A stretch of 64,000 nt of DNA from Candidatus Aenigmatarchaeota archaeon (GTDB taxonomy: Archaea; Aenigmatarchaeota; Aenigmatarchaeia; CG10238-14). Shown here piece by piece: positions 8,501 through 50,287 of this stretch (position 1 is its first letter; each line of letters opens with the position of its first letter). Location of the stretch: positions 64,994 to 128,993 of the forward strand of contig JAOAJH010000003.1 of the NCBI GenBank assembly GCA_026414305.1, in the 5' to 3' direction. Both the position numbers and the translations under genes were made by a program. Below the pieces are notes generated by a model. It did no database searches. It was not told where the DNA came from and saw only the letters and a list, made by a program, of their open reading frames with translations.

Positions 8501-8513
8501 AAAACCCCTCTAA

Positions 8514-12119: not shown

Positions 12120-12395
12120 ATGCTAGGTATCCTAGATGCTTTCAGTATAATCAATTTAGCATTAATTACCTACAGCACAAAAAGTGGTGGTACAAGAATG
12201 GACATAGCAAAAGAAGCCAAAAACATAATAAAACAAATAGTTGGCGAAGAAGCAGCTGAAATGATAAATAAATTTTCTGATCCAAAAAGATATCCTAAAG
12301 AATTTTTAGAAGATTGTATCTATTTTTTAGCAAAATTTGTAGGTGAAGAGGCTGCAAGAGAAAGATTTTCAAAATTATATAAAAAATATGCTTAA
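12120..12395 (+). CDS. Hypothetical small protein
   Basis: 91-aa ORF on the opposite strand, between the receiver gene and the multi-TM protein gene. Confidence 0.3.
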   Translation: MLGILDAFSIINLALITYSTKSGGTRMDIAKEAKNIIKQIVGEEAAEMINKFSDPKRYPKEFLEDCIYFLAKFVGEEAARERFSKLYKKYA

Positions 12396-15690: not shown

Positions 15691-18600
15691 CTACCTCCTT
15701 TCCAAAGCTTTTAGCCTGCTGTCAACTGATTCAAGATATGTCTGAGCCATCTTGAACATACCCTGTTTCATTTTATCTTTTGCTATATTCAATTCTAATT
15801 CAACATCATAAGTATCAATCTTTCTTGCTTTCAACTTCTCTATTCTTTGATCTGCTTCATTTATCTTTTGCTGAGTAGCGTCATATTCAGCCAATTCCTC
15901 ATCTGTTAATCTGTGTGTGTCATGCAATAATGGTCTGAATGACAAGAACCATGGTTTACCTTCATTGTATTCTGGATTTTGCACTAAACCTGTACCTGTT
16001 GTTAGCTTTGTTATTCTAGCTGCATAATCAGCGCCATACTTTGTCTTTACTCTATTGATATCGCCTTCATACTTTGTTCTCAACTGTATTTCTGTTCCGA
16101 TGTTGGCTCTAATTGCGCCTCTGAAATCCATAAGGACTTGAGATATCATGAATAGACCGATACCCCACTTTCTGAATTCTCTTGCACCTCTTTCCAATGC
16201 TACAAAACCGCCTTTACCACCATATTTTGGAAGCAATCTATGAACTTCATCATACACCATTAATAGCTTTAGCTGTTTAGATTCTGGCAAGTTCATGTCG
16301 AATATTTCTTGTATAGATGCTCTTATCAGTGTGTCTATATCTGCCATCGACAATTTATTCATAACAAATACTGTTATTTCTCCTGGTTTCATGTATTGCT
16401 TCAAATTCAACTTCATGTGTGGATCTTTTACTATTATTATATTTGTCTTGAAACCTCTTGCATCTTCTCTCTTTAAGCCGAATTGTGGATATAACTTGAA
16501 CATTTCTTCATCTTTACATGGCCTTATGAAACCAGTCCATTGTGCAGTTGGATCAAATACAATTACAGGTATGTCCCTCTTTAATAACTCTTCAGCAGTT
16601 GCCATAGCTGATACTGTTTTACCTGAACCAGTACCACCTGCAGCTAAGCTATGCATTACAAGTTTGTTTATATCTGTGTAAGCGTTTATATCAGTTTCAG
16701 CTACTTTACCAACCAAAACTGTGTTTGGACCTGGTTGTGGCAGCTTTTTAACATCAACCGGGAATATGTACTTTGCTTTTATCTTCTTCATTGTTGTATA
16801 ATATCTGTAAGCTCTGTAGCCAATTATAGTTGCCGGAGCTATCAATAACAAAACAGCATATGTTATCCAACTTGTTGCTAAAGCCTTCAATATTATTAAT
16901 GGTGCTGGAAGATAAACAACATCAAATGCTGTTGCTGCTCTAGCAACTTTCTTTCCATACCAATATGAAGCTGTTACCTCTAGTATGTATCTTTCTGTTG
17001 GTGTATCTTCTGGTATATCAAACGTCTTAATAAATGTTAAAACGTCTTCAACTGCAACTGTTTCCTGAGATCTTGTAATAACCTCTTCTGTCTTAAGATT
17101 CCTCAATGTGTAATTCAAAACAATATCCTCAACTTTTGCAGTTTGACCCATGTTCAAAACTGTTACTTGGAATTTAGCCTGGTGCCCAGGCTGAACTGAT
17201 TTTGTTAATGATTCTACTTTTACATCAAGCAATGGTTCTGGACCATAATCAACTTTTATCGTAATTGGTGTTCTGTGCTGTTTATCTCCAATTGTTGTAA
17301 CAAGATCAGCTGTGTATATACCAGGTTGATTTGATGGTAATGCAAATACTTTAACTTTAATTACTTTGGTTGATTTAGGTGCAACTGTAAAGCTTGATTC
17401 TTCAAGCATTATCATTTCCCATGCAAATCCTTCTACTTTAATTTCACCTTTCATCTCACTCTCTTCATTGTTTGTTATTTCAATTGAATGTATCTCTTCC
17501 TCTCCTGGCTTCAAAGTCACAAACAACAAAGTTGATTTAATTGAAAATGGCACACCTGGAATTGTTATTTGACCTAAACCTGCTCCTCCGGCTCCGCCAC
17601 CGCCTCCACCTGCACCACCTGCCGCACCACCTGCTGCTTGCGGTGGTAATGTAACTGGTGGTGGTAATGGACAATCAGCTGGACATGTAAATGTTGATTC
17701 ACCATAACCATGATCGCATGTGTTATCTCCACATATATATGGAGCTAATGCATATGCACCTGAAATATTGCCTGTTACTTGAGCTGTAGCTGTGTGCAAT
17801 GTTGAATTGACTGTTGTTGTTAATCTTGTCCATGAACCCAAACATCCTGTTTTTCTTACCCAATTATCGCACCTGAATAAAGCTAATGATCCTTCAAAGA
17901 ATGCAGCTGGTCTGCAATCATTATTCATCTTGCATATTGTCTTGCTCATATAATCGCTGTAATCAAATGTTATGCTTGTGTTTGTTGTATTCAATACAGT
18001 TTCAATATACAGTCCTTGCAGAGTGCCTATACTAACTCTTTCAGAAGGTATGTCACCAAATATCATTGGATTAAAAACATCTGTTATTATTTCAACATTT
18101 CTTGAAAGTATTGTTGAATTGAAAATTGATGCTTGCAGGTCATATCTTCTTGCATCTATCAATACATTGTAATAACCATTAGCCATATTTGGTGTGATAT
18201 TAAACAGCATTTGTGTTGTGTCAGGTTGATATAAAGTGAAGTTTACAAATGTTATCGGTTCTGCAGCATGCTCATAATCTTTTGAATATCCATGGAATAA
18301 AGCTGCAGGATATATCTGAAATTCAGATGATGCATTTCCACAATTATTTGAATAATCACAAGCTGTTGCATTGATTGTATAAACACCTAACAAGGTTGTG
18401 TTTGTTATGTTGTACTGATAATAGTATGTATTATTGACTCTGTACAAGAATATAAATGAAATTTGTTGTGTTCTGTTGTCTGGATATGTTATTATAGCTG
18501 GAACATTTCTCAAATTACCTTCTTCGTATGCTATGCCATTAACTGTTGCAACATAACCAGCTGGAACTTTGGATGGAACTATCAAAGTCAATTGAGGTGG

Positions 18601-42600: not shown

Positions 42601-45600
42601 ATTCGCTATTCTATAATCACCAGATTCGCAAGGCCAGCTGAATGTTTTTGACTGCAAAGGTTGAATTATCGTTGGCAAAGTTTCAGTAACAGATGGCGTT
42701 GCTGGTTTGTAAGAAACAAGTTTATTTGAATATATAGTTTCATTGTTTGCATTAGTTGAATTCACATAAACTGTAAAGTTCTGCTCTCCATAACTGGTTG
42801 AATTAACTTGCCATGAAACTCTATAATGTTGGCCTACATTTACAGTACCTAAACTCTTTGTCGATTGATCAACTTGCCAACCTGATGGTGCACGCAAAGT
42901 TACAAAAACATTTTCTGCTGATGCAACCCATGCTGTTATTGTTGCATTGACAGTAAAGTTTCTTCCGGCAAAAACTTCTTTTGGTGTCAATACTTCTTCA
43001 GCATCTATTTGAGGTTGGCATCCAGGCAATTGAATTGTTATCGTACCATTGCCCATTTGGCTTGGTTTATAATATTGCTCCGATGAATTGATTTCAGCTG
43101 TCCATAATTGTGTTCCTTCATAGAAACCGTAGCAACTGGTGATGTTGAATAAAAATCTTGCATAGCCTGTTTCATTTGTTAAAGCTGTTCCTAAAATTAT
43201 ATAACCTTCTGGATAGCCTGAATTGAAAATCTTGAAAGTAACAGTTGCTGATGGACTAGTAACATTATATGTCTGCCTATCCAAATCATAAACTCTTGCT
43301 GACAAATATTGAGGTTGCACATCTTTTATCAAAGTTGTTAAATTACCTTCGCCGCCATAAGTTATGTTTGTATCATCCTTTTCAACTGTTACTGACAAAA
43401 CTTGTTCTGTCTGTGTGCCATCTAACTTGAATTGATAATACCATGTGCCTTGGTCAAATGCAGTGAAATTGCGATACCAATATTTGGTTGAGCCTATGCA
43501 ATTATCGCATTCCAAAGGAGTTTGGTTTAAGCATATATTAGATGGACATAAAGTTATTGGTGGCCAAAATTGGGCCATGTATATGCTAGCATTCAAAACA
43601 TTTTCAGAATCGCCACTGCTTACATTTATCGAAAAATTCCAGTTTCTGTAACCCCATCCTTCTGTTGTTGGATATGCGTATGGTTGCAACAGCTTCTTGA
43701 TTGGATATAAATAGAATAAGCCAGGATTGCCTAGATTGTTTGTATAATTTGTGTAATGCTGATCTCTTACAGCATACATACTTGCGTTATACCAACCCAT
43801 TGGTGTGTTTATTGTTGTTGGCAATTCACATGTAAATGCGTTTGAACCGACTTGACTAATATCTGTACATTCTATACTTGTTGAAGATTTGTTGATGAAA
43901 TATCTTACTGTTGGCGTTAATGGATCATTACAATCATCACTTGTAGCGCCCAAAAATGGAATTTCTTGCTCTTGAGTAAAGTTTGATGATTCATCTGGCC
44001 TGACAAAGCTTAGTATTATATCACCTGTTACGTTTACAGCCAATCCAAAACTTGTTTCAGTATTATTATCTTGATAGCAGTCGTTGTTTGACAAAACAGC
44101 TCTCCATTTTTGCAAACCTACTTGATATTTTGGACTGCAAATAGCTTGGAAATAATAATTTGCATAAGCAGAAGCGTTTGTCGATGTTGTATAACCTGCA
44201 TCATAAATAGAACCGTCTAATGTTACGTAAAATACAAGTGGCAAATTGTTTACTAGTGTTCCATTTAAATCCCTTGTCCTTAAAGCAAGCAGTGTTGATG
44301 TTTTACCTCTTCTTGTTTCTGTATTGTTGCCAATGATATTTTCAAAAATTATTTTGTCTTTTGTAATTGTAAACAGCGATTGAGTTGAATTTGTTGTGCC
44401 TGCATCATTTGTTGCGTTGAATTTAACAAAAACAGGTGAACCTATATCATTGCAGCCTGGATCAAATTCATATGTATAGTTTCTCCATGGACCAGTTGTC
44501 GGGCCTGGTGCATTGTAATTTTGGCAATTACCTACTTGCAACCAAGGCTCGCTGCCAGTCTTGCTGAAATAAGAGCATACATTAACATTTGTATCTGAAT
44601 TGCTTACTCTTACGCTTATGTTAAAAGTAAAATTATAACCCCATGAGCCACTTGAGCTACCTGTTTCTTTGCTTATTACTATTGGATTTTCTAATTCTAT
44701 AACAGCAGGTGGAGATTGTATTTGCACATCTCTACAAGATGCTGCCCTAGTTGAATTTTCCGTTGCATTTGCTATTATACAAAATCTATATGTTCCTGGA
44801 ATCACACCTGTAGTGTTGACTGTGTAATAATAATCTGTGTGAGCCTGCTTTGTTTCTTTGCTTGAAATATTTCCCAAATATGTTATGTTGTTTTGATGAT
44901 TTGTTGAGTTTCTTACATTAAAATTAGCTGTGTAGTTGATTAAGACAATTACATTTGTAGCACTACCTGGTCCATCATTATATATTGATGAAGAAATATT
45001 AAACGAATCTCCGCTATATATAGGTGGATTTGTCAATTCACCTTTTTTTATTACAGGTTCGCTGACAATCAATGAGGCACCACATGAAATAAGAGATGTA
45101 TAATTTTTATCATAAAATAAGTATGTCACATTTCTTGTCAATGCTTTGAAAACAAATGTACCATTTGTTTGATATGGCACTGTAATCAAATAAGTGTAGT
45201 TTCTTGAATTATCTTTTCCTGTTGGAATAAAATTGATGTTGTTATTTCCCCAAATTATGTTGTTGCTGCTATAAACATTTGCAGATGGATTGAAGTTTGA
45301 AAATTGCAAATCATTCCAATGTGTTACAGTTTGGTTATATTTGTTTTCAGTCACATTAAAGTTTGTTGCTGGCAAATTTCCTTTGTTAAATACTTGTAGT
45401 TTTACTGAGAACGGTTGGCACATGTTTGAAGTTGGGAAGCCTTCTTCTTCGTTACTACTTGTTGTATTATAATATCTAACTGTTTTTATGAATGGTGATA
45501 AAACATTTACTACATTTCTATCTGTTTTGAAAAGGTAATCTTTGTTTTGTCTCATCCATCCAACATAATTTGTGTAAAAGACTTTTCCACCAGGTGTTAT

Positions 45601-48600
45601 ATTATTTTCAGGTAAAACTGTTGTTGTAAAATCTACATAATGGTTTAAATTGCCGACTGATGCAGTTGCTGCAGCAGCAAATCTTATTACTGTACCGCCA
45701 ACTGAATATGGTGAAAATTTAACAATCCATCCCTCTTCTGGCGATCCTATTGGATAACCTGGGTCTGGAGATGTTGCTCTGACAGTCGCGCCATTGTTAT
45801 CCACAATTCTGAAATTTGTCGGTCTTTGAAATCCCGGTGGTATATATAGCTCGACATAATGAACAACTGTCTGCGTTGCGGCACCATCAATTGATGTAAA
45901 ACCTTCACTACCACCCAATTTTGCAATTGCTCTCAGAGCTAATTGTTCATTTGGATAAACTGATGTCTTATTCAAAGTTGTAGTTATTGTCGGTGATTGG
46001 GTTCCAGTTAATGCAGATATTAAAGAAACATGTTGGTTTGTAACCATTTGTGGTTCTCTTGTTATTGGATCAATCCACTCGGCTTGCAAAATAAATGTTT
46101 CTTCGCCTGTATCGTCAGTTGGTCTATAAGGAATATCTGCCATAAAACATGAAGAGGTATTTATTCTTACATTATACCATCTAACTTCACCTGTTGCATT
46201 ATAATCAGGTTGCGGCACGGCTGGTGGACCATCTGTTTCTGTTATAAAATAAACATTTGAACCGGCTGTAAAATCAGTAACATTTACAGTTAAATTGTAA
46301 TCACCATAATTGCAAACATATATTTGTCTGAAATTTTTAAAGCAAGGCTGACCGTCTGCATCTGCACATACAGACGCATGACCAGTACCACAGTTTGTTG
46401 TCTGACCACCTGTATCTTCACAGTTTGCGCCAAGTTTTCTCGGTGTACTAGTGAATAAAACAATATCATTTGATGTTCCTCCTTCATCTGTATATACAGT
46501 AAAAGTTTTTGTATGTTGAACGGTTGTTTGATTGTAAGATATATTTACATAAGCAGTGTAAGTTGTAGCCTGTATATTATCAGGGACATATATCGTATAT
46601 ACAACTCTTCTTTCGCTCCAATTTGGTCTTGATGAAGTTCCTGATAAAGAAATTGATTGTGTTTTTCCTTCTTCAACAAACCAATCAACTGAATTGCCGC
46701 TTGAATCCTTTATATCAATGCTTATGTTAGCTTGCTTTGCAGATGAATTGTAATTTGCTAATGGTACTACTATTCTTGCTAAATGACCTCTTGAAATTAC
46801 ATCTGTAGGCTCGCCTGTAGGGCCAAATATTTTTATCGGTCTTACAAGATTTATGTTTTGACAATCAATTATGTATGCGTAAAATTCATTTGTATCAAAC
46901 ATTGGTCCTTGTGTTCTTGTTTTTGGCAAAACTCTTAGTTTTGTTAAACCCAAAGATGCTGTCCTATTAATTGTAATGTTCCATCTGAAATGTTCACCCC
47001 ACTCACATTTATCACCATTAGTTGTTCCAAAATCAGAAGTACATGTATCTGTTTGACCAACACCACTTCCTGTGACTGGGTTGCTATCACCAGTCATTAA
47101 AAAGAATCCTGCTACACCATTTGATGTTATTGGTTTCCAAGAACCGTCATATACTTGAAATTCCCATTGCTGAGATATGCCAGCATCGTCATCTGCTTCA
47201 TCTGTTAATAAAACATTAAATGAATAATTTTCATGATTTCTACACATAACAACAGGGTCTCTATATTGGTCAAAGCTGTTGAATACTACATGCTGGACAG
47301 CATCAGTTACGTTGCTTGTTCTATAGTAATAAGGCATAAATTTGAAGAAATAATAAACAACATCAACCACAATAAATGTCCATGGTTTTGATTCTTCATA
47401 AACAAGCGAACCATTATAATAAACTGTTAATGGACCTGCCAAATATATAGCAGGGTCAACATCTGGTGTTGTAAAGCTGTATTTTAATGTTTTTTCGTCG
47501 CCGTAGTTCAAGCTGTTAAAACTCCATATGATCCAAGTTTCGTTTTCTTTTCTTTCTATTCTTGCGCCATACACTGTTATTTCTAAAAAGCTGTTAGGTA
47601 GTTTTTCTATAAATGTAACATTGCTTGCATTCACATAAGACTTTATTTTTAATTCAGCTGTGTTTGGATGACCTATATCTATTAATGTCTTCATCTTTCT
47701 TTGTATATCAAATTCAACGTAATCTCTTGATTCAAAGAATGTTTGATAATCAACTGAAAAGTTTGAACCATATGCTGATACTTCTATTGAATAATATCCA
47801 GTTTCATTTACATCATAAAGTAGTGTTAAACTTCCGTCAAATTCATCAGTTGAAAAATCTCCATTATAGCTGTTGAATGTTGTTATTTGTCCTGATGGAG
47901 ACAATATATTCATGATGACAGTTGCATCATACGCTCTTTTGCCTTCATTGTTCAAAACACCAACTGTTATCTTTGCCTTGTCATTTTTCAAGTAAATGCT
48001 CTTGTCTGTATTGACATTTATCAAACCGACAGCAAACTCTATCTCCTCTTCAACTATAACTTCACCTGGGTTGGGACTAACATAGCTGAATCTAACTTTT
48101 AGTTTGTGAATACCAGGCTTGAAGTCTCTTTCTGTATCAAGTTCTATATAGAATTTTCCTGGGTTCTCGTTATCTGCTATAACGCTTAATTCTGTTATAT
48201 TACCTTCAGGGTCTATAGAATATGCAGAAACATTAACATCTGGATAAAGCATTCCATCTTCATCAATAGCTTCTATCTCAAACCTTATTTTTTCTCCAAG
48301 ATCATAATTGAATTTTTCTTGTTTAATTTTTGGTTTCACAACCTTGTGTTTCAAAACATCAAAAACTATTATTTCAGTTGTGTTTCCATATTCTGTTTCT
48401 GCTTTTATTTCAGCTGTGTATTTACCATAATTTTTTGGTAGCAAAGTTAAGTTGAAAACAAAATCCCCTTCTGTATAAACTTCCCTTTGCGCAACAATAT
48501 CGCTTTTTGCATCCTTCAAGACAAGTTTCACATTCCCATTTGTTTTGCTATCGCCATAAATTAAACTTCCATTCACAAGTATTGACTTGAATTTTGTTTC

Positions 48601-49437
48601 TCCTATGTTTTCTGAATGTCCATCTACTTTTATCCTTATCTTGCTTGTTTTATACTCAAAAGTTGTTGTGTTTACTAATCCAATGAAATTTACTTTTACT
48701 GTATATTGACCGTCAGAATAAACAGAAATATTATCTTCATAATATCCGTCAGAATAAACATAATTTTCATAAACAGCAGAATCATTATAAATTACTGTTA
48801 TTTGGACAGTGCCGTTAACTGATGTATAGCCGTAAATTCTGACTGTATCGTTTTGTTTATATATTGATTTATCAGTAAAAACAGTCAAGAAATTTTGTTG
48901 TGGTGCATCGGTGTAATTTGCTTTTATTTCGAGCGAAGACGGATTTAAAAACAAGGAATTGTTGCCTTTGTAGACTATCGAGATGTTTGAATTTTGCTGA
49001 ATATATATTTCACCAAGATCATTTGTGTATAGTTTTTCAAAAACGCCATTTGAATATACTTCCAACTCTTGATTTGGCACAAAAGAGCCGTTGTCCATTC
49101 TTAGTGTTGCCTTTTCATCATCAACTGAAATAAAAGTATCAGCCCATATTTCTATCGATGCTTCTTGCTCTATATTGTTGTCTGAAACAGATGAAAACAT
49201 ACCTGTTATTGGAGAGTTTAATGTAGAGTTTGTTGCTATTACAGCAGCAGATGTTATTAACAAAATTATGAACGATGTGAGCAATTGAGTTTGGCCTGAC
49301 TCTGATTTTTTACTCAAATGTAAAAAAACTGCATATATAAAAGCTATCAGTAAACTTGCATATAACGGCAAAATTATGAATAGAGGAAGCATGACAATTG
49401 GTAATGCTGCTGAAAGTGTTGCTTGGCTCTTACTCAT
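15691..49437 (-). CDS. Giant (11,248 aa) multi-modular cell-surface protein with C-terminal TM and cytoplasmic FtsK/HerA-like ATPase domain
   Basis: Uninterrupted 33,747-nt ORF. N-terminal hydrophobic segments, a very long N/T/S/Y-rich ectodomain dense in NxS/T sequons, ~21 reiterated ~350-aa modules, CARDB/Ig-like C-proximal domains, a Gly/Ala linker, a TM helix and a Walker A/B ATPase tail. Antisense ORFs in this span are all short. Confidence 0.9.
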   Translation of the reverse strand: MSKSQATLSAALPIVMLPLFIILPLYASLLIAFIYAVFLHLSKKSESGQTQLLTSFIILLITSAAVIATNSTLNSPITGMFSSVSDNNIEQEASIEIWADTFISVDDEKATLRMDNGSFVPNQELEVYSNGVFEKLYTNDLGEIYIQQNSNISIVYKGNNSLFLNPSSLEIKANYTDAPQQNFLTVFTDKSIYKQNDTVRIYGYTSVNGTVQITVIYNDSAVYENYVYSDGYYEDNISVYSDGQYTVKVNFIGLVNTTTFEYKTSKIRIKVDGHSENIGETKFKSILVNGSLIYGDSKTNGNVKLVLKDAKSDIVAQREVYTEGDFVFNLTLLPKNYGKYTAEIKAETEYGNTTEIIVFDVLKHKVVKPKIKQEKFNYDLGEKIRFEIEAIDEDGMLYPDVNVSAYSIDPEGNITELSVIADNENPGKFYIELDTERDFKPGIHKLKVRFSYVSPNPGEVIVEEEIEFAVGLINVNTDKSIYLKNDKAKITVGVLNNEGKRAYDATVIMNILSPSGQITTFNSYNGDFSTDEFDGSLTLLYDVNETGYYSIEVSAYGSNFSVDYQTFFESRDYVEFDIQRKMKTLIDIGHPNTAELKIKSYVNASNVTFIEKLPNSFLEITVYGARIERKENETWIIWSFNSLNYGDEKTLKYSFTTPDVDPAIYLAGPLTVYYNGSLVYEESKPWTFIVVDVVYYFFKFMPYYYRTSNVTDAVQHVVFNSFDQYRDPVVMCRNHENYSFNVLLTDEADDDAGISQQWEFQVYDGSWKPITSNGVAGFFLMTGDSNPVTGSGVGQTDTCTSDFGTTNGDKCEWGEHFRWNITINRTASLGLTKLRVLPKTRTQGPMFDTNEFYAYIIDCQNINLVRPIKIFGPTGEPTDVISRGHLARIVVPLANYNSSAKQANISIDIKDSSGNSVDWFVEEGKTQSISLSGTSSRPNWSERRVVYTIYVPDNIQATTYTAYVNISYNQTTVQHTKTFTVYTDEGGTSNDIVLFTSTPRKLGANCEDTGGQTTNCGTGHASVCADADGQPCFKNFRQIYVCNYGDYNLTVNVTDFTAGSNVYFITETDGPPAVPQPDYNATGEVRWYNVRINTSSCFMADIPYRPTDDTGEETFILQAEWIDPITREPQMVTNQHVSLISALTGTQSPTITTTLNKTSVYPNEQLALRAIAKLGGSEGFTSIDGAATQTVVHYVELYIPPGFQRPTNFRIVDNNGATVRATSPDPGYPIGSPEEGWIVKFSPYSVGGTVIRFAAAATASVGNLNHYVDFTTTVLPENNITPGGKVFYTNYVGWMRQNKDYLFKTDRNVVNVLSPFIKTVRYYNTTSSNEEEGFPTSNMCQPFSVKLQVFNKGNLPATNFNVTENKYNQTVTHWNDLQFSNFNPSANVYSSNNIIWGNNNINFIPTGKDNSRNYTYLITVPYQTNGTFVFKALTRNVTYLFYDKNYTSLISCGASLIVSEPVIKKGELTNPPIYSGDSFNISSSIYNDGPGSATNVIVLINYTANFNVRNSTNHQNNITYLGNISSKETKQAHTDYYYTVNTTGVIPGTYRFCIIANATENSTRAASCRDVQIQSPPAVIELENPIVISKETGSSSGSWGYNFTFNISVRVSNSDTNVNVCSYFSKTGSEPWLQVGNCQNYNAPGPTTGPWRNYTYEFDPGCNDIGSPVFVKFNATNDAGTTNSTQSLFTITKDKIIFENIIGNNTETRRGKTSTLLALRTRDLNGTLVNNLPLVFYVTLDGSIYDAGYTTSTNASAYANYYFQAICSPKYQVGLQKWRAVLSNNDCYQDNNTETSFGLAVNVTGDIILSFVRPDESSNFTQEQEIPFLGATSDDCNDPLTPTVRYFINKSSTSIECTDISQVGSNAFTCELPTTINTPMGWYNASMYAVRDQHYTNYTNNLGNPGLFYLYPIKKLLQPYAYPTTEGWGYRNWNFSINVSSGDSENVLNASIYMAQFWPPITLCPSNICLNQTPLECDNCIGSTKYWYRNFTAFDQGTWYYQFKLDGTQTEQVLSVTVEKDDTNITYGGEGNLTTLIKDVQPQYLSARVYDLDRQTYNVTSPSATVTFKIFNSGYPEGYIILGTALTNETGYARFLFNITSCYGFYEGTQLWTAEINSSEQYYKPSQMGNGTITIQLPGCQPQIDAEEVLTPKEVFAGRNFTVNATITAWVASAENVFVTLRAPSGWQVDQSTKSLGTVNVGQHYRVSWQVNSTSYGEQNFTVYVNSTNANNETIYSNKLVSYKPATPSVTETLPTIIQPLQSKTFSWPCESGDYRIANLTASWNGTETKTKLYSYNGTTWIEIAERYLNSTSTEFIPILQNQLNSNETGYCVVKIENIGDNYININQLQFTPYYNQTVKVQDINITSSSMQLTGIEPNEKINVTVRVGNSGQSQTGVLWLNITGPSGVVNYSSQNVNIPTGTSLFFVNNIDTTGWQQGTYSIRAYVDYGNKTKRIEPFELSQIQARVYAYDWICNSSTESFSINIYHPFNDFIQYNVSLQIPTGWSSQPSYVLINATSKGNYTANFSITSSNAASETATINATIKYNYPTAKSMTLSKQIQQSNSIAILEVTREMPKYVGNDKVFDAQLTIHNKGCAPTSGTTVVREDISSGWIPANPFIKTNEYGDNIDLVSTQVDLIRNRITWTLGEIGVNEYAVLTYQIKAPVDLSREGQFRWNISWDSRNLIERDNFKVQTANYSQEAHLEFDLEALQQSDYPWVEPRSAQLNRNYDYSLKVTNIGDINATGWNVTLFIPQDCSVTAIQNSGSWNSTSRKISWSLPEIESYDSTYLNFTLNCSVEGKKVLIAEAVKDERQKITFTNDTLISCVGNDCLTEQTYTFTKPVNARYETLSSISLLTRQELFGYRNTIGHAKISLTNDLNVYSTLWQNYSHDSFTLANWQNYTILDSNYVLPSRQIKIEGYADATDDAYTNITLSKISYTWNVGKKFEEPQEIFIKSKIYKYTPLLENATLYINGNSTRLTGGWGEQFNFSVQIRDRFGRNVTVYAWHKKGAGEYSLIGSWVCYSCLNWNQANFSYDYVGSDISSWDFKFNATNDDGTSTLNGYPYTVEADDINVDFAYPGYNMTVNRSRTSDFVILVYDRDNQTSPYYLTQGEVDEGKGRIYISKFGSNATFDLSPSLSANTTGHITRQMSNVSNQWCFVTDYYLGQNYWRGGIEGAVTYKNNATGIYPFVLVGDLSNSYLTQPSNINFTRGSIVNLDGVIKDDCNDVKTDSAKFGAEYILSHESTQYRVTADLTSTSWSIPTNAPLGWYNITMISFTEGTEEGKYWNSSFFKQNAFFLSSTPQLNNVQIQPYPTGSWELKPFNFSVYVTNVDNESVLTRLWLRNQTDNWFVQNTTTCNNCNNYYFLTQNNFSCYNIGEWQLQFNATSATSFTNLTSTFIFNVTKSDISILHSQGNNTDVNRSDTEPSNQRRLAVQIFNLVTRKYETAISTSDVYTWINTGSQYIEEFELSNTSHYYFDFNPNCTFQSGMQKWKVNTTSSCYSTNTSQEFFVNIYGSLINNLILPDGTVNYTQNDQILLLGEITDDCSQAVTNANVRFKLQSGSNVYYCPVSGYITNSTGNYYLCTWDSTGKPGGFYNVTMESSKDYHINGSDYQQNAFFLVTPVQLSSPQVIYPGDGSWGELHNFTVYATHYAPVNVCLLERTPATQWQVTECKYISNPQNTMVNFTKDYTCDQYQASALRYYAFNASEPGVPATNSNTTEQSHVLVKNDIVISYSSGHDSIVNRNGINSTKFVLFVNDTDKNQPAYYLLGASAKPQVWFRVFNGTSYLVDGSNTTNTTGYVEYNFNPSCSYEPGKFNWQGYTSSDSCYKDSTAQEYNVTIIADLTPNVTYPDGETYFRNLLLYIPINGTVTDECNLRYNENATVTFTAISVGFGNSYQCSPVSNNNDGSYNCTLNATEIQEGWYNIRMNATNVQYYNNATVLATNKFRVVQQWVPPVLENVTVLPEQDWGWGENFTFIVNVSDQNAQDINVSLWLSPDNQTWQFISSQICYNCGSKQQLTFYYKGLDCSAIPQYYFKFNASDVYNKTDTGGISFTVNKNDVDARYIDLSTGNNSAVNRSEYKQLRLRVYDTDNKSYVPAGLNARIFVTTNYVDFDLGNANQTDSQGYISYYFSPNCSYQPGLQQWKGGIYNDACYKDSNITSQLNITIFGWLNNTISSPNGQVYYSNQNVSIKTNITDECLIPITNANITLKLNHSNFVDYCIDYSFGNGWYNCTWNISNNPSGWYSITMNSSKNYYNNASLFKSQSFFHQVNPQLTSLFVSPNSTWWGSTFSFRVNVTDDDDYVNVSLWVRCIGGNITPNGCDPSSQFQLANSSIVYDYINQQLVLTKKYPDGVNIGNYEWFINASDLYNGSASSSIYTFNVTKRPVYITYVSGNDTSVSRLGSNTTQVRVRLFRVGVDGGADEPLNGLSVNFWFTQNGNVWSTTPRSNTTGQSGPGYAEFSFNPTCPATDGGIDFFRTGMQWWNATFSSSTEPGIYYYANTSSNFTLFINSSLNVLITRPSGEYYPVGYNVFTVANVSDECEYVQGASVQISVAGEGISCSNNTGSPDGQYSCTLITSVLGTGDYNQTADASKAFYTSASTFKENAFRIRYSPQLNNHQVYPTTEGWGYNFTFNVSAQDSDPGDYLNISLWKSYGGEWIKVSQQNCESCLSQQTFFFYPIFSCEDYVNGPIVRFKFNTSDSYGLKAETSNFTINFEKDDVIFTIVQGNGAIINRSNLNTGNVYNFIVIVNDTDRRNVTVNSSEEPTSQITGYLWFSTEPMNPTFDAGWSNTTVNGSLSYLFNPNCNYRVGLQYWRAGIIGNTCYKDSNMTAPYPSMNIYGQLNTLLYRPPQYTQFNVTDNVTFKYSTYSDCYLQGAEDNGNISVDSSQLTINNTFSCTPINQESTGNYNCTWDTTNKAQGNYTVNITVQKSYYNYNSTLYVDWFYLRNRQPNVTNMSVTPQVSGWGDTYTYTAEIFDEENDTVTCSLYTNTTGTWIYKGSNTITAPGNCSIVVNDFNCNEQGLASFRFEINDTFTRFNTSVSNGPTIVKDNVQLVYILGNNSFVNRTADQTTLFVINATDITKNVKASNANATIWITTDGSFYGSSFNIQTNSTGYLNFYFNPNCSSPSYTLGRQFWLAGITNDACYNSINTTTNFTVNILGDLQLFINAPKGEKYLRTSYPDGEYVYIRANISDDCQLPITNAAVNFTSNRFSQNIYCNPIINELNSNYNCTIDTSSYQAGAWNVTMNASLANYNNNYTIHVYQANQRGYWVETKPVIEPYLPLTPVPAGDGGWGEYWLFATNVTDEDMDVLTLRLWVNSTVDPEIWTFRASNNTVSGVNQTVYFNVTFTSTFANKAFKFKYNVTENTVDFIQNVNETGNGTFYLDKDDTFVQYIEGNNTVVNRSSPLSVSNFTMTVRLWDADKYDTTLGNRRIRFLMTNDNNENYTIVSPPALRTNGTGEQPSSAGWGYATNYSKPDCKFTVGPQKWKAEIYDETPYKSSNSSVSFFTIIAQPLQARVISPKNQTALKGIDNVVIKVNLTDDCGLVRNANVTIRAIDASGVVRGICNPNDPFNPTLDEGNGIYNCTLSASQIFSEDWPTGWYNVSVNASKQYYESSPVYIEHRSFRIGTAPELSNIVVLSQQGSNVGGWGELWSFSVDLIDPDNDNSTVYLWMNLDGNWVLFNQTYWRNGIDPSTITFYNTFNCTQASDLGLKLFKFNVSDDFGFKDEINSTFTLQEDDTEIFISSTTGYELNREGLDQILLSALVTDLDRYSTPVGQDVSTRIRVTYNSSDPNSWNDFNLQTNSSGYINYYLDPDCTYSVGIQQWRAQVYNDVCYKTTTEQDSFIIKGSIYNNLELPDYLSSYPTGSVIEIKYNTTSDCTYTRSDEAPLINVTPTIELSLNGASWETCSPVNSTYGVYNCSWNSSFKQPGFWDIKFTSSKQYFNTKQTVFPDWFEIYNANPTNTTIPTVTPTMGGWGDVYNYSVYLTDSDGDPITCVLYTSTDDGNTWRRQGQRTIGSSGLCSFVVSNFNCNATYTDVGSDNWFKFEITDGYHTPFNISSEEGPIIERNNITITLLSGNNTIVNRTGNEFTTLRVFVNDTTKAWPVGNGTSGNATVYFNVTINGVSYVIDGSNTTLRGNVTYRFNPSCSYNVGDQKWFAYKSGATGGDQCYNDASSSVYNLTIFGNLINNIAIPNGEKYNRDEQNVTIRANVTTDCPSNEGLINNATVNFTIIHIGTSNQYSCTPGSFTNEGNGYYNCSFDTTSKPTQWYNIRMNSSGFQYLTPNNTIKTQAFFVSTRPVLANPTTSPLTGGWGAPHTFSVYVRDDDNDVNNVSLWIRCVGGDCTPTNFWLAKTSLVSASSSPQQVQFVKTDFTALDIGNWEYFFNSTDGLNSANTTIGTFTIDKDTINITLIEGDNVVINRSTTQTVTLRVKVFDVDRNVAISPGEPGTGYFYVTTDPNNANSYVIDKTLSSIEGGSYLTNTFPTLSRCTYGIGPQKWKVEFGSYAYKTTNSSEFSINITTHEIALQIIGPNNQTFRRVIDPIPLIAYASDDCGGLTQATAFFKAYPEYSWTTCNSPTDNLNGTYNCTLYSPPTAGLTYYDLEFNASKQYYNASNTAYKQDSFVLVTNPEITAYAPTTSDSLSPYGWSETWNFTAIVRDVDQNVYNFEKLNISLWIDFGSGYQLINSTICSAIDNPNCASWKAITFLYNKFSCGDIGIKSYKWNVTDQWNYKNETSSTFTIDKSDVAIEFVDQPSSIYRANSTTGRFIYRVLDTDSNSYVINTSTNTAMWITVDGNNYDSGRFVQINSSGYANYDFDPDCNYGYGMQRWIAGVYQDSCYKNKNLSFAPQFEVTAQLRNNIQLPSYNSVYNVTDLIAIRFNTTTECLTEGIIANATPTISLRSPLNVWETCTPVYNEYNGWYNCTWNSTHKKEGYWSITLNSTKTPYFAFNSSMYTNWFWLENLNSTYDNVTLAPGIGGWSRLYNYTIDIDDPEREDINCSLFVSKDNQLTWEYKGSYLLQNGLGKCFVTVHDFSCDDIGKDIYYKWQIVNGEPANAYNTTVYAGPNITESSVQVQLHQGNNTFVNRSFQTKPLVVRVYDTENQTFVYNANTSFWITYDYYNYTLVNQTKTDLLGYVLHSFLPTCMYIPGTQKWIGGVSNDKCYVDINSTEYLVHVNGTLFNNIIQPSSQEFLRGSNITIKVNVSSDCSNEVMNESVTINFTNVKDSTQYLCTPILNENTGLYNCTFNTSTYAARWWNVTAFSVKTLYNFNYTTKSNAFWIETKPELNNPTVTASGDGGWGETYIFTVNFTDEDLDPNTLRLWVNKSSGWTNSNTTTISGINQTVTFIQVNLFSSSDYINSLNNLTKYYFRTQDEVIPTENDIDQTQELNISLQKDDVYINHTYGNSTVVNRTEGSLFFRVRMWDTDRTPWDDLPSGSRGRFWFTKDGSSFTNTIDKFANSSGEIAHLQALECSFQVGPQYWFAELYGNTPYKDTNSSIFNWTIVTVGLTANITNPDGISRLRGIDDIVLRVRVTDDCGGVPNATVVFYVPSESYECNNVYYEGNGYYNCTIPYSTTTTWNTGWHDVTVDVSKQYYNGTFVEKTNAFYLATKPEILLTPPPTATPEQDGGWGENWLFTAITQDLDGDYYNVSLWFNLTGSWQLADSTIVSGPQQVDFPDKTFACENIGQRQFMFKVTDVWGYSNNYTSPFNIDKDDTTIEYVSGAGTQVDREYNDYELIRVQIRDFDRDDYLVGPNINGSVWITTDGVNYILSAINTTDSSSYLSYYFDPNCTYNVGVQKWRAGIYDDVCYKDNNPDFGFTIEITGQLKNYILSPPYNTTFAVGNYVNTTFAVLDECSLPVNQSNGKIEFRSPSGIYESCLPVTSSQNIYNCTWNTTLHQGGYWDIRLNSSKTYYYSNSTLLSQWLYLVNTPPYVENLSVTPTSEGWGRTFTFSLDVDDLQKDNVTCTLLVSTNNGLTWMNKGNSTIYNGYGRCQVNVSTFDCGDIGNDNRYMFEVYDGTNTFNTTNNTNLVIEPNDVQLYYISGNQSYVNRSGSQSTNFVLQVYDLDSNLYPSNVNMSVYVTVDQSNFIENSTPKTSFNGTLNYSFNPSCTFNNLGLQYWKVGANNNICYKNINTTENYTVYIIGDIINKLTGPTGDSYLRGEENVTFALEEIDDCAAPVENANIILNLTSEYGNVYGCEPVTTIGGGIYYCEKNTTGMRARWYNVSVNSSQQYYNSNISLHIRPFFVKTKPIVQNLTITPAQDWGWGERYTFTANVTDEDLDDVVVSLYYKSVVFDDWNQINFTTVSSPLNSTVIMTYQGFTCADQDYQQQFEISALDTRSYLTNSTLIEPWNKTFNLTKDDVILTLESGNGDEVWRNGTDNRRLSVRVYDSDKNTYPGAGYNGMFWVTTNYLSFDIGKQTTTNISSHLNYLFTSEAPQPECDYLTGPQKWIAGVYDDACYKDKNSTNYTITIKSELRPQIDFPYGQGFIRSNPVPFVGRVYDDCGLVSGATSTWTSYIGINEYGCFNKTEANGWYNCTWVSTNRPYGYYDLLFSVTKNYYALNSSFRDDAYFLGTLPSLSNPRILNNHYRGGWGETYDFAVRVTDFDLNINNVSVWKSFDGINWTLVDSRNVSNAVNQDVVFSKKFNCSDMGFNYFYFTTVDQFGYSANTTVMNFTLEYDNVSLVVGLSNSTVRRIGNNLALLNFTIYDYDYGRYAPLASGKVNITLDYTNYSYVMNCTTDSTGQCYVYYNPDCSSLAGVQQWIGKTDDSCYEYVQTVPTQLTVIAQLNTSIQSPYNQQILNRNQYANLTTNVFDECLVAVNDSTVNWYNETFYNIANGYSTTWQIPTFYQLGPETIYVNTSRTYYDKNSNFTNVYIYGWSGVLIENPINASNYLAGFSVNVKCKVTDQNTTSPLQGYTVNFYKNGTFQDSQLTNSEGEAVWLWQTLAETPGWYNITCSISDNNILFYNASKKQDEVQILIKRPLIIQTIQKDAPFVYRNNSFEPNNVNITVKVRDSLVGDANNANITFYNSTALIDYCMTNSSGICTINFNPSDTVTPNVYTIYINATKSGLEDSETNTTTIEVRGKLYLNISSPQNNSFWAKTDNLVLSASVVDESNQPTSSNLRWFNETALVASGENTNWLLLDQTTGNHTLTANATRDYYDKGEQTLIITVSSLADVQWIYPQDGSIMPYPLPFNTVCRVVDSSTGVGIANYLVDFWYNYTPGYIYNGTLLTNASGHATNTFEPIQKGTITFRCNITNDYVKLYTPNIPEALASITVRDTRPPQIYNQSIHPIYGLEANLNYTNISAVVIDDIGVSNVFARIGTPNGTYVNLTLSHMGSNLYSLFYLPPIGGVYNVTIFAVDNPPENNINNTFVGYFYVNGKTDGIVTQPDEIQINGITWVNSESAAITINFTNTGPATAYGVNLTFTADPLNSLIFNETMHQCGIVYNQSSCIFGLLVTVPAATPPSVLKLITDAVWRNPDQSLGIDSEDTNFIIISNKIIDIIEENVTAITPHDKLTDIPDVNVSSIGNDLITDITVTTVGGNISTLCPECQIIIVPNEWGLLEAGANFIVDLKVQVPIAQPPGTYWTYVRASSPETAPDLMPLYITVPLNASWQRSPDSFGIILAPPNTTGYIGDITTTSFANIRIIFNAYKQQNASQLFNIYPSAFSLDNGAVRNVSVNYTIPASYVSAQGMYYAEIIITNTTAMPQEYKTSFWLNVTDIPPIISNVSIIPQTFEMIYENTNISAIITDNFAVSYAFINVTLPNGSSIQQPIQPTGKYYSAVYSTNIHGYHNISICANDTQSLIACTNPIPVLASGKTQINQSFNVSKVDVSNITLFEGKQYVLNVSTNNIGNSRAFNVSVNITSPQNLSTNINNSFYNLILKTQSYSDLVLVNISPATKPGKYMLNFSNSWINLDNTTDESLSQLEFEVLSNPKLNLSSNVTVYVPDGTENNGTLTIQSIGNDDVTNITFSCLSGTVCQDFNISFIPSFISRLNVSEAAYVNISVAVPRQYPLGTYNGTIQVNATNISMNVPIYVIVPMNLSWTQSPLEIYRNVLGDSYGYYGSIELQNTGNTPLLLKVEKTGNISSYLSLAESYITIPIGAVYTIKINYTVPNIAQISNFTGYITTGNTTADQQKSTFVSLHVTPYYVDIKYPTSTNPITGITFGDTISARVNVTFGQVLTDNVTFFVRIFNESFSQAVVVDSAYYSPSQQLWIVNFTAPMLPENRAYDLNITANDTFDNLIRSDVEYRSINYMDSIPPQLTLIVPSKVPAGYVATVNGIAYEEGNLRNVPAIITYPDNRTQQISFIFLYRVNNTYYYQYNITNTTLLGVYTINATACDYSNNCGNASSEFQIYPAALFHGYSKDYEHAAEPITFVNFTLYQPDTTQMLFNITPNMANGYYNVLIDARRYDLQASIFNSTILSRNVEIITDVFNPMIFGDIPSERVSIGTLQGLYIETVLNTTNTSITFDYSDYMSKTICKMNNDCRPAAFFEGSLALFRCDNWVRKTGCLGSWTRLTTTVNSTLHTATAQVTGNISGAYALAPYICGDNTCDHGYGESTFTCPADCPLPPPVTLPPQAAGGAAGGAGGGGGGAGGAGLGQITIPGVPFSIKSTLLFVTLKPGEEEIHSIEITNNEESEMKGEIKVEGFAWEMIMLEESSFTVAPKSTKVIKVKVFALPSNQPGIYTADLVTTIGDKQHRTPITIKVDYGPEPLLDVKVESLTKSVQPGHQAKFQVTVLNMGQTAKVEDIVLNYTLRNLKTEEVITRSQETVAVEDVLTFIKTFDIPEDTPTERYILEVTASYWYGKKVARAATAFDVVYLPAPLIILKALATSWITYAVLLLIAPATIIGYRAYRYYTTMKKIKAKYIFPVDVKKLPQPGPNTVLVGKVAETDINAYTDINKLVMHSLAAGGTGSGKTVSAMATAEELLKRDIPVIVFDPTAQWTGFIRPCKDEEMFKLYPQFGLKREDARGFKTNIIIVKDPHMKLNLKQYMKPGEITVFVMNKLSMADIDTLIRASIQEIFDMNLPESKQLKLLMVYDEVHRLLPKYGGKGGFVALERGAREFRKWGIGLFMISQVLMDFRGAIRANIGTEIQLRTKYEGDINRVKTKYGADYAARITKLTTGTGLVQNPEYNEGKPWFLSFRPLLHDTHRLTDEELAEYDATQQKINEADQRIEKLKARKIDTYDVELELNIAKDKMKQGMFKMAQTYLESVDSRLKALERR
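15694..16800 (-). other. Cytoplasmic FtsK/HerA-superfamily P-loop ATPase domain (C-terminal ~370 aa of the giant protein)
   Basis: Walker A AAGGTGSGKT (nt ~16612..16650). Walker B/DEAH-like LLMVYDEVHRLLP. Arginine-finger-like region further C-terminal. Located after the only C-terminal TM helix. Confidence 0.7.
16813..16912 (-). other. Transmembrane helix of the giant protein (PLIILKALATSWITYAVLLLIAPATIIGY) followed by basic YRAYRYY
   Basis: Hydrophobic 28-aa stretch followed by a positive-inside patch, immediately before the ATPase domain. Translated directly from 16801..16905. Confidence 0.7.
17569..17661 (-). other. Gly/Ala-rich flexible linker (PPVTLPPQAAGGAAGGAGGGGGGAGGAGLG) in the giant protein
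   Basis: Conspicuous GC-rich run (gctcctccggctccgccaccgcctccacctgcaccacctgccgcacc) in otherwise AT-rich DNA. Verified by translating the reverse complement. Confidence 0.8.
22300..45000 (-). repeat. Intragenic array of ~21 diverged tandem protein modules (~350 aa / ~1 kb each) within the giant gene
   Basis: About 20 copies each of three recurring sub-domains. Sub-domain 1: (G)GWGE-x-F-x-V-x-V-x-D-x-D...N-V-S-L-W. Sub-domain 2: V-N-R-S...R-V-Y-D-T-D...F-N-P-x-C-x-Y-x-x-G-x-Q-x-W-x-A-G...C-Y-K-D-x-N. Sub-domain 3: D-E-C...N-A-N-V...Y-x-C-x-P...G-x-Y-N-C-T-W...G-W-Y-N-x-T. Two anchor points mapped by translation: TEGWGYRNW at ~43640..43670 and PECDYLTGPQKW at ~24050..24140. Array boundaries are approximate. 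Confidence 0.6.
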
Positions 49438-50287
49438 ATGTCACCACAATTTTTATTTTTTTGATGCCTAGCTCAGAGGATTTTGTGTCTATCAAAATCT
49501 CTGGATAACAACTTTGGCCAAATTCTAAATCGCAACTGCCTGTTTTTTCGTTTAAAATATTCAAATCAGCCGGAATTATCCATTCATAGGAAATCTTTCT
49601 TAATCCGTTCAAATTACTTGTCAATACAGCCTTGATTGAAAATGTATTACCTCTTGTGGCCTTTTGGTTATAGTCAAACTCTATTTTTACTTTACCACTT
49701 GACACATCAGTTAAATCATTTGAAACATTATAGGATTCAGAAATTTGATTGTCTGAATAATTGCTATCTGGAATTTGGGTTGTAGAAACTGTCGAAAATT
49801 CATCACCTATTGTTGAAGTTGTAGCAGAAATTTGATTGTCTGAAACTGTCGATGTTTCTTGATCCTCGAAAGATGTCGTAGTTGACATGATATCGCTAGA
49901 TGATGTTACTGTCAAAGTGTCGAAAACTTCAGGAAAATTGCCTGTTACAGGATTGCTTGAATTGTCGATGTTTTGTGCTATTATAAGAACAGGTATTGCC
50001 ATCAGTATTAGTGCCAAGAGAAAGATTTGCACCTGTCCTGTTTCAGCTTTTTCGCTAGCTACTGCATGAACTGGTTTGTATTTTGGCAAGAAACAAAGCT
50101 TTGCCATACCGACTTTTCTTTCTTCCACCTTGCCTGATAGGATTAGATCCTTTACGTATTTTGTTGCTGTGTGTCTATGAATGCCTGCTTTGTCTGCTAA
50201 AGAAGATATTGTTAATCCCTCTGGATGCTTTGACAAAACGTCCAAAATGTTTTTCATCAAATTTTGTTCCATATGGAATTTCCCCAT
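49430..50287 (-). CDS. Membrane-tethered winged-helix transcription regulator (N-terminal wHTH, one TM, S/T-rich extracytoplasmic spacer and C-terminal beta-rich domain)
   Basis: N-terminal LDVLSKHPEGLTISSLADKAGIHRHTATKYVKDLILSGKVEERKVGMAKLCFL is a wHTH paralogous to 52933..53235. TM segment VQIFLLALILMAIPVLIIA. Spacer with SDNQIS repeats. Its stop TAA (49430..49432) overlaps the giant gene start ATG (49435..49437). Confidence 0.6.
   Translation of the reverse strand: MGKFHMEQNLMKNILDVLSKHPEGLTISSLADKAGIHRHTATKYVKDLILSGKVEERKVGMAKLCFLPKYKPVHAVASEKAETGQVQIFLLALILMAIPVLIIAQNIDNSSNPVTGNFPEVFDTLTVTSSSDIMSTTTSFEDQETSTVSDNQISATTSTIGDEFSTVSTTQIPDSNYSDNQISESYNVSNDLTDVSSGKVKIEFDYNQKATRGNTFSIKAVLTSNLNGLRKISYEWIIPADLNILNEKTGSCDLEFGQSCYPEILIDTKSSELGIKKIKIVVTYE

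Follow-up and report, generated by a model that had tools for sequence, protein, structure and literature searches.

A giant gene in the window

A stretch of 64,000 nucleotides (nt) from contig JAOAJH010000003.1 (assembly GCA_026414305.1, positions 64,994 to 128,993), here called the window, contains a single open reading frame (ORF) of 11,248 codons on the minus strand, which makes up 52.7% of its length. The frame begins with an ATG and has one terminal stop codon, as seen both in the ORF list and in the translation of the window, in agreement with the original prediction of one uninterrupted frame that fills more than half of this DNA. Judging from its sequence, the gene is a new and very large member of the SPEARE family, known from giant proteins of Nanohaloarchaeota; it belongs to a different DPANN phylum and carries a distinct repeat module, and the core features of the family are present in it. 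The gene and its parts, given with the positions in amino acids (aa) of the encoded protein, are as follows:

15691..49437, minus strand: whole giant gene (11,248 codons and a stop), encoding a SPEARE-family surface protein that carries a motor at its C-terminal end, matched by collinear orthologous fragments
49318..49437, minus strand, aa 1-40: N-terminal extension of hydrophobic character, which forms two additional membrane helices (a hairpin) or, if the TTG at codon 41 is the start, is not translated
49222..49317, minus strand, aa 41-72: segment resembling a Sec signal peptide (n-region KKSES, h-region, AVIA followed by TN), in register with P0122, probably cleaved
44479..49221, minus strand, aa 73-1653: non-repetitive distal "head" with one MG2 (alpha-2-macroglobulin-type) beta-sandwich at aa 475-561 (Pfam, E 5e-10)
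42604..44478, minus strand, aa 1654-2278: two copies of a ~330-aa module (iterated hidden Markov model, HMM)
40357..42603, minus strand, aa 2279-3027: spacer with other beta-sandwich domains (DUF11/CARDB, NOMO1-like; Pfam)
22894..40356, minus strand, aa 3028-8848: the ~330-aa module in 17-18 divergent tandem copies, 33-44% identical (HMM, AlphaFold2, Foldseek)
17734..22893, minus strand, aa 8849-10568: degenerate module fragments and further beta-sandwich domains, with NEW3 at ~aa 9858-9930 (Pfam, HMM) and, from ~aa 10027 on, homology to membrane-proximal SVXNc_0300 and SG9 SPEARE 1 (blastp)
17569..17733, minus strand, aa 10569-10623: four-Cys knot CGDNTCDHGYGESTFTCPADCP, then Pro-rich and Gly/Ala-rich linkers
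16900..17568, minus strand, aa 10624-10846: membrane-proximal ectodomain region, also present in short (~620-780 aa) members, probably of beta-sandwich character
16828..16899, minus strand, aa 10847-10870: single transmembrane (TM) helix (hydropathy, AlphaFold2)
15904..16827, minus strand, aa 10871-11178: predicted cytoplasmic P-loop ATPase of the HerA/VirB4 branch (Pfam, homolog alignment, AlphaFold2, Foldseek)
15694..15903, minus strand, aa 11179-11248: helical or coiled-coil C-terminal tail (AlphaFold2 helices, model residues 340-408)

The local base composition predicts a stop about every 13 codons, and the probability that 11,248 codons remain free of stops is ~1e-386. Over the length of the gene, 887 and 927 stops interrupt the two remaining frames of this strand, and the GC content at the three codon positions is constant along it (~0.38/0.41/0.24). 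The mechanical ORF list contains no other ORF of at least 150 aa on any frame within 15691..49437, so that the frames inside the giant one are indeed short, as had been claimed. Repeats within the protein are seen at the protein level only, where the copies are 33-44% identical, and Tandem Repeats Finder identified no DNA repeats in the gene; a collapse or expansion at the DNA level is therefore rejected. Furthermore, fragments of orthologs from other DPANN genomes, which are ~40% identical, overlap each other and jointly span aa 381-11,245 in the same order:

P0123 ("Ca. Haiyanarchaeum thermophilum", Nanobdellota): aligns to aa 381-5845, 42% identity
P0121: aligns to aa 3481-8831
P0124 (Micrarchaeia): aligns to aa 6045-11243, 37% identity
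P0142 (Aenigmatarchaeota): aligns to aa 7071-11246, 38% identity
P0141: aligns to aa 7185-11245, 43% identity

Over more than 10,000 residues the arrangement of the parts is unchanged among orthologs at this level of identity, as is typical of a functional gene, and we conclude that the ORF is a genuine, intact and single gene. It is highly improbable that the frame is an artefact, with repeats collapsed or expanded in assembly or several genes joined into a chimera, or that it is a pseudogene in decay: short-read assemblies are often broken by repeat-rich giant genes and the closest homologs all end at contig edges, but the divergence of the copies makes a collapse implausible, the frame has no stops where the other frames have ~900 and its codon-position GC is uniform, overlapping collinear fragments of orthologs span nearly the whole length, and the same layout is found in the complete P0135 (5,175 aa) and in two published proteins from closed genomes, with 8,553 and 9,409 aa.

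Homology to the SPEARE proteins

The SPEARE proteins of Nanohaloarchaeota were described as being up to 8,553 aa long and mostly extracytoplasmic, with a conserved region inside the cell and a TM helix close to the C-terminus (Hamm et al. 2019, PMC6642349). The SPEARE of "Ca. Nanohaloarchaeum antarcticus" was detected by proteomics, and relatives of the intracellular part were reported in Woesearchaeota, Aenigmarchaeota, Micrarchaeota and Altiarchaeales (PMC6642349). A later study described SVXNc_0300 (9,409 aa) and BNXNv_0298 (8,880 aa), in which a signal peptide is followed by one immunoglobulin (Ig) domain, two beta-propellers, ~75 Ig-like domains, a TM segment, a "VirB4/TraG-like" ATPase and a coiled coil; it rejected the earlier assignments as protease and endonuclease and proposed a type-IV-secretion-like "straw" (Frontiers 2023, PMC10266531).

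The most similar known proteins are the giants of "Ca. Nanohaloarchaeum antarcticus" (5,998 aa), "Ca. Nanopetramus" SG9 (8,553 aa) and "Ca. Nanohalococcus occultus" (SVXNc_0300, 9,409 aa), and the direct comparison used the 3' 10 kb of the SVXNc_0300 and SG9 8,553-aa genes (loci L004 and L006). The segment aa 10027-11242 aligned with the C-termini of SVXNc_0300 (blastp, E 4e-131, 1,246 columns) and of SG9 SPEARE 1 (8,553 aa; blastp, E 6e-134). The alignment with SVXNc_0300 ends at most six residues from the C-terminus and includes the coiled coil, while the short ATPases encoded downstream of the nanohaloarchaeal giants align to aa 10628/10645-11242 with ~35% identity. The suggestion that the protein matches no nameable family and may represent an undescribed system does not survive this result, as its C-terminal ~1,200 aa are homologous to the published SPEARE giants.

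Like these giants, the protein has thousands of residues, is predicted to be mostly extracytoplasmic and has a single TM helix near its C-terminus. The bulk of the ectodomain consists of tandem Ig-like beta-sandwiches in the published proteins; here, the AlphaFold2 model of one module is all-beta and resembles strings of macroglobulin (MG), Ig and FN3 domains, and the protein has ~20 copies of the module. The signal peptide, the Gly-rich linker, the membrane-proximal region, the DUF87-type ATPase and the coiled-coil tail come in the same order, a homologous coiled-coil gene lies downstream, and in both cases the organisms are DPANN archaea. However, the protein is larger than the SPEARE giants, its composition is not halophile-acidic like that of P0135, and the module HMM detected no intact copy of its ~330-aa module within the 3,333 C-terminal residues of the two nanohaloarchaeal giants, where the matches were weak and partial. 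With 11,248 aa it is longer than the 9,409-aa protein that had been reported as the largest of any cultivated archaeon and of the nanohaloarchaea sequenced. A survey has recorded that archaeal proteins of more than 10,000 aa exist, although they are few (preprint 10.1101/2023.11.21.568195), so the size is remarkable but not unique. Literature searches on DUF87 in DPANN archaea and on HerA-type surface proteins of DPANN archaea gave nothing relevant.

The C-terminal cassette

The motif CG(N/D)GxCE...GE...CPxDC(P), which contains the four cysteines of the knot, is located at aa 10569-10590 (17668-17733) and is followed by a Gly-rich low-complexity linker before the membrane-proximal domains. The knot is also present in P0124, P0135 (two copies), P0141, P0142 and P0222; SVXNc_0300 has a Gly/Ser-rich linker at the equivalent position, where no knot was seen. 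The knot and linker may be regarded as a candidate hinge or processing site, since peptides from the ectodomain and the anchor were found in different size fractions (Hamm et al., PMC6642349). Pfam gave a weak match to an ASH-type beta-sandwich at ~aa 10630-10696 in the membrane-proximal region, and the consensus of the homologs covers the region aa 10624-10846.

The Walker A motif of the ATPase, GGTGSGKT, occupies aa 10934-10941 (G10934 to T10941), after the TM helix. Pfam identified DUF87 (the HerA central domain) and HerA_C, together with weaker matches to T4SS-DNA_transf and FtsK around the P-loop, the T4SS-DNA_transf match spanning only ~40 residues around Walker A. The proposed C-terminal TM helix and cytoplasmic ATPase are thus both borne out. 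In an alignment of 65 homologs, Walker A, Walker B (D11063 and E11064) and some 55 further columns are invariant, and the invariance of the predicted active site suggests that the domain is catalytically intact. A profile of this alignment matched only HerA-clade entries among the PDB sequences, with Sulfolobus HerA (4d2i, E 1e-10) at the top, followed by anti-phage HerAs and YjgR. The AlphaFold2 model of aa 10840-11248 has a predicted local distance difference test score (pLDDT) of 91.1 and a predicted template modelling score of 0.85, and contains a long TM and juxtamembrane helix, a RecA-like core and a tail of three helices. SVXNc_0300 was also described with a C-terminal coiled coil (PMC10266531). 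In Foldseek searches with the ATPase model, HerA hexamers ranked first, followed by FtsK and the coupling protein TcpA.

The sequence and the model both place the ATPase in the HerA/VirB4 branch of the FtsK-HerA superfamily, probably closest to HerA and lacking the accessory domains of either. A RecA-like core of the HerA type with Walker A and B is present. However, only this core aligns with the characterized HerA proteins (262 of 458 residues; Sulfolobus HerA 4d2i, and the HerA-NurA and anti-phage SIR2-HerA systems), and the NCBIfam models for HerA score 17-23 bits, compared to cut-offs of 800-970. Unlike HerA, the ATPase is membrane-tethered and fused to an extracellular protein, and no NurA-like neighbor or effector partner was detected in the window by Pfam and NCBIfam scans of the neighboring genes. 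The similarity to VirB4 and VirD4 (TrwB, TraG) and to the ATPases of the archaeal Ced/Ted DNA-import systems is likewise limited, with scores far below the family cut-offs, neither the N-terminal domain of VirB4 nor the all-alpha domain of VirD4, and no VirB2-, VirB6- or CedA-like genes near the giant gene.

The ectodomain and the N-terminus

The whole protein contains 523 NxS/T sequons, compared to 203 expected, and is enriched in N, T, S, Y and G. In the ectodomain (aa 75-10846), 522 sequons compare to 205±12.7 in shuffles that preserve the composition (z = 24.9), which agrees with the hundreds predicted originally; a control count of the reversed motif gave 210. No sequon is found in the cytoplasmic part (aa 10871-11248), and of the cysteines 180 are in the ectodomain compared to a single one in the cytoplasmic part. 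Archaeal S-layer and surface proteins are heavily N-glycosylated. The split of sequons and cysteines fits an exported ectodomain that is probably heavily N-glycosylated and disulfide-bonded, with the ATPase in the cytoplasm, and the hydropathy of the protein points to the same topology, as had been proposed. The enrichment in the five residues was also stated correctly, but the ectodomain is ~10,770 aa long rather than ~10,600 aa.

The protein is not simply of low complexity. An iterated HMM identified ~20 divergent copies of the module, at aa 1654-2278 and 3028-8848, which account for over half of the protein, and an alignment of 19 copies shows conserved cysteines, a YNCT sequon, a GGWG motif and an acidic DxDxD motif. 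The AlphaFold2 model of one module is confident (mean pLDDT 91.8) and all-beta, and can be read as about three beta-sandwich domains. Its best Foldseek matches in the PDB are strings of MG, Ig and FN3 domains (complement C5/C3/C4, A2ML1 and phage Hoc), with low template modelling scores of about 0.27, as is expected for flexible strings of several domains. Elsewhere in the ectodomain, Pfam matched MG2, NEW3, DUF11, CARDB and NOMO1-like beta-sandwiches. A part of the head, at aa ~350-1440, is shared with P0121, P0123, P0143, P0127, P0137 and P0200.

Pfam and NCBIfam searches with the whole protein gave sparse matches to beta-sandwich and ATPase domains and none to an enzymatic domain, and Pfam and motif scans detected no beta-propeller, protease or toxin-like region. 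Motif scans for a thioester (CGEQ), HExxH, GDSL, subtilase and RGD were all negative, and a protease or toxin function, as first proposed for SPEARE, is not supported here. The top Foldseek matches of the module are the arrays of MG domains in alpha-2-macroglobulin and complement C3-C5, which the MG2 domain at aa 475-561 also recalls; an identity as a thioester protein of this kind was rejected, since CGEQ is absent and only the MG-type beta-sandwiches are shared, which leaves a resemblance in fold.

Besides the TM helix at aa 10847-10870, hydropathy identified two hydrophobic segments, at aa 5-40 and aa 50-72. The N-terminal hydrophobic stretch of the original prediction is therefore present, but more probably serves as a cleavable Sec signal peptide than as an anchor. 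The segment aa 41-72 (SKKSESGQTQLL...AVIA, then TN; in full SKKSESGQTQLLTSFIILLITSAAVIA, then TN) aligns in exact register with the N-terminus annotated for P0122 (MKSSTKSGQSQLLIPLLLIISSAMVFA, then TN), and because of this register the TTG at codon 41 (49315-49317) may be the true start, which would give a protein of 11,208 aa. A Shine-Dalgarno-like motif, GGTGA, at positions -9 to -5 of the ATG counts for the ATG over the TTG. The ATG also overlaps the stop codon of the preceding gene (ATGAGTAA) by 8 nt, and this overlap together with the upstream GGTGA is, at the sequence level, the pattern of translational coupling.

Relatives in other genomes

A search of a large protein collection with the C-terminal cassette identified 507 proteins. 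The best match, with 91% identity, comes from a metagenome-assembled genome (MAG) named "Candidatus Aenigmarchaeota archaeon", and others are from Aenigmarchaeota, Nanoarchaeota and Woesearchaeota, which, on the basis of homolog names, agrees with the DPANN-like organism that had been predicted. Among the 507 are complete short members of 720-785 aa, and the closest matches stop at contig ends. Of 1.84 billion cluster representatives, 757 matched a profile of the module, and many of these have 4,000-6,900 aa; five of the retrieved giants share the same ending of knot, linker, TM helix and ATPase.

The species-representative genomes contain at least 559 loci that encode the cassette. For the 80 closest of these, we followed the frame upstream of the ATPase through a flank of 10 kb, so that the lengths are lower bounds (at least 3,333 aa). 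The frame reaches the edge of the stored DNA in 70 of the 80 loci and is open over the full 10 kb in 41, while it is closed in only 10, at 35-2,356 aa. In 13 of 16 fully open loci that were scanned, the upstream stretch holds 3-4 near-complete copies of the module. The giant form is thus usual rather than exceptional among the closest relatives in the species-representative genomes, and from the sequence matches the family appears to be concentrated in host-dependent DPANN lineages. For L001, the closest named contig, blastn gave no match to the window although the encoded proteins are 72-91% identical, and its organism is therefore related but not of the same species.

The gene downstream of the giant gene is conserved together with it:

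14257..15645, minus strand: predicted cytoplasmic coiled-coil protein of 462 aa, with homologs in five loci and SMC/Rad50 coiled-coil-type matches only

Homologs of this gene are found downstream of the ATPase-bearing gene in all five comparison loci, with identities of 72% in L001, 29-30% in L002 and L003, and 26% in the nanohaloarchaeal L004 and L006. The gene follows directly in L001-L003, and in L004 and L006 an extra short ATPase gene intervenes. The protein matches the 512-aa downstream protein of SVXNc with an E-value of 2e-18 and the 741-aa protein of SG9 with an E-value of 8e-15.

A few other relatives deserve mention. The Micrarchaeia contig JBAZVF010000001.1 (L027, 1.30 Mb) encodes a C-terminal piece of 5,201 aa (P0124/P0276) that begins at the contig start, and also an N-terminal "partial" piece of 6,938 aa (P0121). 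The ends of P0121 and P0124 are just 58% identical and do not form one overlapping sequence; if the contig is circular, the two may be one gene of ~12,000 aa that is split at the circular junction. P0135 (5,175 aa, complete) is very acidic (D+E 14.5%) and combines an N-terminal subtilase-like domain and RCC1-like repeats with modules and the same cassette. From a reading of its sequence, with no HMM scan, some members of the family may after all carry a protease, as first proposed for SPEARE. ATPase cassettes 45-67% identical to that of the window (L007, P0042 and P0113) are also encoded on contigs binned as Heimdallarchaeota (L007, 3.5 kb) or as "bacterium" (P0113), and the Heimdallarchaeota label of L007 most likely reflects mis-binned DPANN DNA rather than a true presence.

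The neighborhood of the giant gene

Two further genes flank the giant gene and its coiled-coil partner:

49430..50287, minus strand: upstream protein of 285 aa in which an N-terminal winged helix-turn-helix (wHTH) is followed by a single TM helix and an extracellular domain rich in Ser and Thr; 8-nt overlap of its stop with the giant ATG
13141-14256, minus strand: PAS-HisKA-HATPase histidine kinase, directly after the 462-aa gene

The wHTH part of the 285-aa protein is 44% identical to a 72-aa gene product encoded upstream of the cassette in L002, and the protein may be a membrane-bound regulator of the locus. Downstream of the cassette (11074-14256, minus strand), there are also genes for a CheC-like phosphatase (11074-11688) and for an unannotated multi-TM protein of 250 aa (12392-13144). 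Neither a response regulator nor chemotaxis genes were noted anywhere in the window. The wider window contains chromosomal housekeeping genes, namely those for the alanyl-, isoleucyl- and tyrosyl/tryptophanyl-tRNA synthetases, Sua5 and peptidases, and three tRNAs.

The function of the giant protein

A role as a giant adhesin is the leading hypothesis for the SPEARE family, and we think it rather probable that this SPEARE gene encodes a stalk that holds the host and a motor that moves a polymer at the contact site. The giant polypeptide would be exported by Sec, and the ~10,770-aa ectodomain would, as the sequence statistics and the models suggest, fold into about 100 beta-sandwich (Ig/MG-like) domains with dense N-glycosylation and disulfide bonds. 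Together the domains would form a flexible stalk of a few hundred nm that is held by the one C-terminal TM helix. An Ig-like domain has a length of ~4 nm, and the stalk would be several hundred nm long, comparable to the diameter of a DPANN cell. From what is known about the family, the cytoplasmic domain would be an active, ring-forming ATPase of the HerA/VirB4 branch, and it probably forms hexamers as in all solved relatives. The hexamer could bundle up to six stalks, or one giant chain together with short paralogs, and dock the coiled-coil partner. The stalk would find and hold the host cell, and the motor would then spend ATP on moving the polymer across the membrane of the symbiont at the contact site. 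DNA is somewhat more likely than protein to be the substrate, because the closest solved relatives are translocases of double-stranded DNA. Adhesion is the better-supported half of this mechanism compared to translocation. Of the heavily glycosylated adhesin or sheath-like protein originally envisaged, the adhesin is accordingly retained, and nothing specific was found in favor of a sheath.

Several observations weigh against this stalk-and-motor reading. One TM helix per chain would give at most a bundle of six helices, which makes a poor channel for DNA or protein, and no channel-forming partner (VirB6- or CedA-like), pilin or nuclease was found in the window. The HAS-barrel of HerA is absent, the core following immediately after the TM helix, and Pfam gave no match to the VirB4 N-terminal domain (PF03135) either. 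A laminin-G domain was reported for all SPEARE ectodomains by Hamm et al. (PMC6642349), but Pfam gave no match to Laminin_G (or DUF2341) in the whole protein, where the sensitivity of the HMMs is limited and a divergent domain is possible. A short ATPase paralog follows the nanohaloarchaeal giants (SVXNc_0299, BNXNv_0297 and the 625-aa protein of SG9), but no second short ATPase gene lies downstream here, where the next gene in the window encodes the 462-aa coiled-coil protein. Finally, the assignment of the organism comes from the names of homologs, and the support for the reading comes from sequence and models.

In L004 (1-11872) and L006 (1-11878), the end of the giant gene overlaps by 4 nt the gene for a paralog of ~625 aa with the same membrane-proximal ectodomain, TM helix and ATPase. 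Because of this arrangement in Nanohaloarchaeota, one may speculate that giant and short forms co-assemble into mixed rings.

It is also conceivable, if unlikely, that the protein forms a structural or protective coat, similar to halomucin or an S-layer, and that the ATPase serves its own export, anchoring or turnover, or outside-in signaling, with no transfer between cells. Envelope proteins typically show such an extreme glycosylation potential and Ig-like repeats, a lone TM helix makes a weak channel, and the flanking wHTH-TM protein and PAS histidine kinase are compatible with a signaling context. Halomucin of Haloquadratum walsbyi (~9,000 aa) and the bacterial RTX adhesins with Ig-like repeats are likewise very large, repeat-rich and extracellular, and form glycosylated or calcium-binding coats or adhesion stalks. 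None of them is known to have a C-terminal TM helix and a cytoplasmic motor ATPase. Such giant coat and adhesion proteins were mentioned in connection with SPEARE (PMC6642349). However, the invariant catalytic site and the conserved coiled-coil partner, in a family with at least 559 loci, argue for an active motor, all characterized motor relatives move nucleic acids or secretion substrates, and the family is concentrated in host-dependent DPANN lineages.

The published model of a type-IV-secretion-like "straw", in which a VirB4/TraG-like ATPase injects protein effectors into the host (PMC10266531), appears quite improbable for this protein. The ATPase does belong to the branch that includes VirB4, but HerA-clade proteins score better both by sequence, where they are the only matches, and by structure. 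No other type IV secretion component, VirB4 N-terminal domain or second ATPase gene was found in the window, in which the neighbors are the wHTH protein, the coiled-coil protein, the histidine kinase and housekeeping genes. A string of beta-sandwiches has no lumen, and the AlphaFold2 model of the module lends no support to a "straw".

If the stalk-and-motor reading is taken further, a membrane-tethered hexamer of the HerA type that gathers up to six stalks of ~0.3-0.4 µm (or a giant with short paralogs) and the coiled-coil partner could constitute an uncharacterized machine for intercellular translocation, with outer parts unrelated to type IV secretion or Ced/Ted. We consider this extension doubtful. 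If it is true, such a machine serves DPANN archaea from many phyla in the uptake or delivery of DNA or proteins where they touch the host, and the ~330-aa module defines a large, unnamed and non-halophilic branch of it. The SPEARE-type giants, studied so far only in Nanohaloarchaeota, are the main molecular candidates for how DPANN archaea, which lack most biosynthesis, attach to their hosts and obtain material from them. The window and these comparisons show that in Aenigmarchaeota-type organisms the anchor-motor cassette is joined to ectodomains of still greater size, and that the motor is at least as close to the HerA DNA translocases as to VirB4, which bears on the "secretion straw" model. 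For biochemistry, the 378-aa cytoplasmic domain and its partner of 462 aa offer small, well modelled targets.

Other genes in the window

On the plus strand at 3805-6188, an ORF for an M29 aminopeptidase (3805-5139, GTG start) and an ORF for an M24 peptidase (5037-6188) overlap by ~100 nt, and the M24 peptidase probably starts further downstream than the listed position 5037. A second M29-like ORF is located at 56634-57608.

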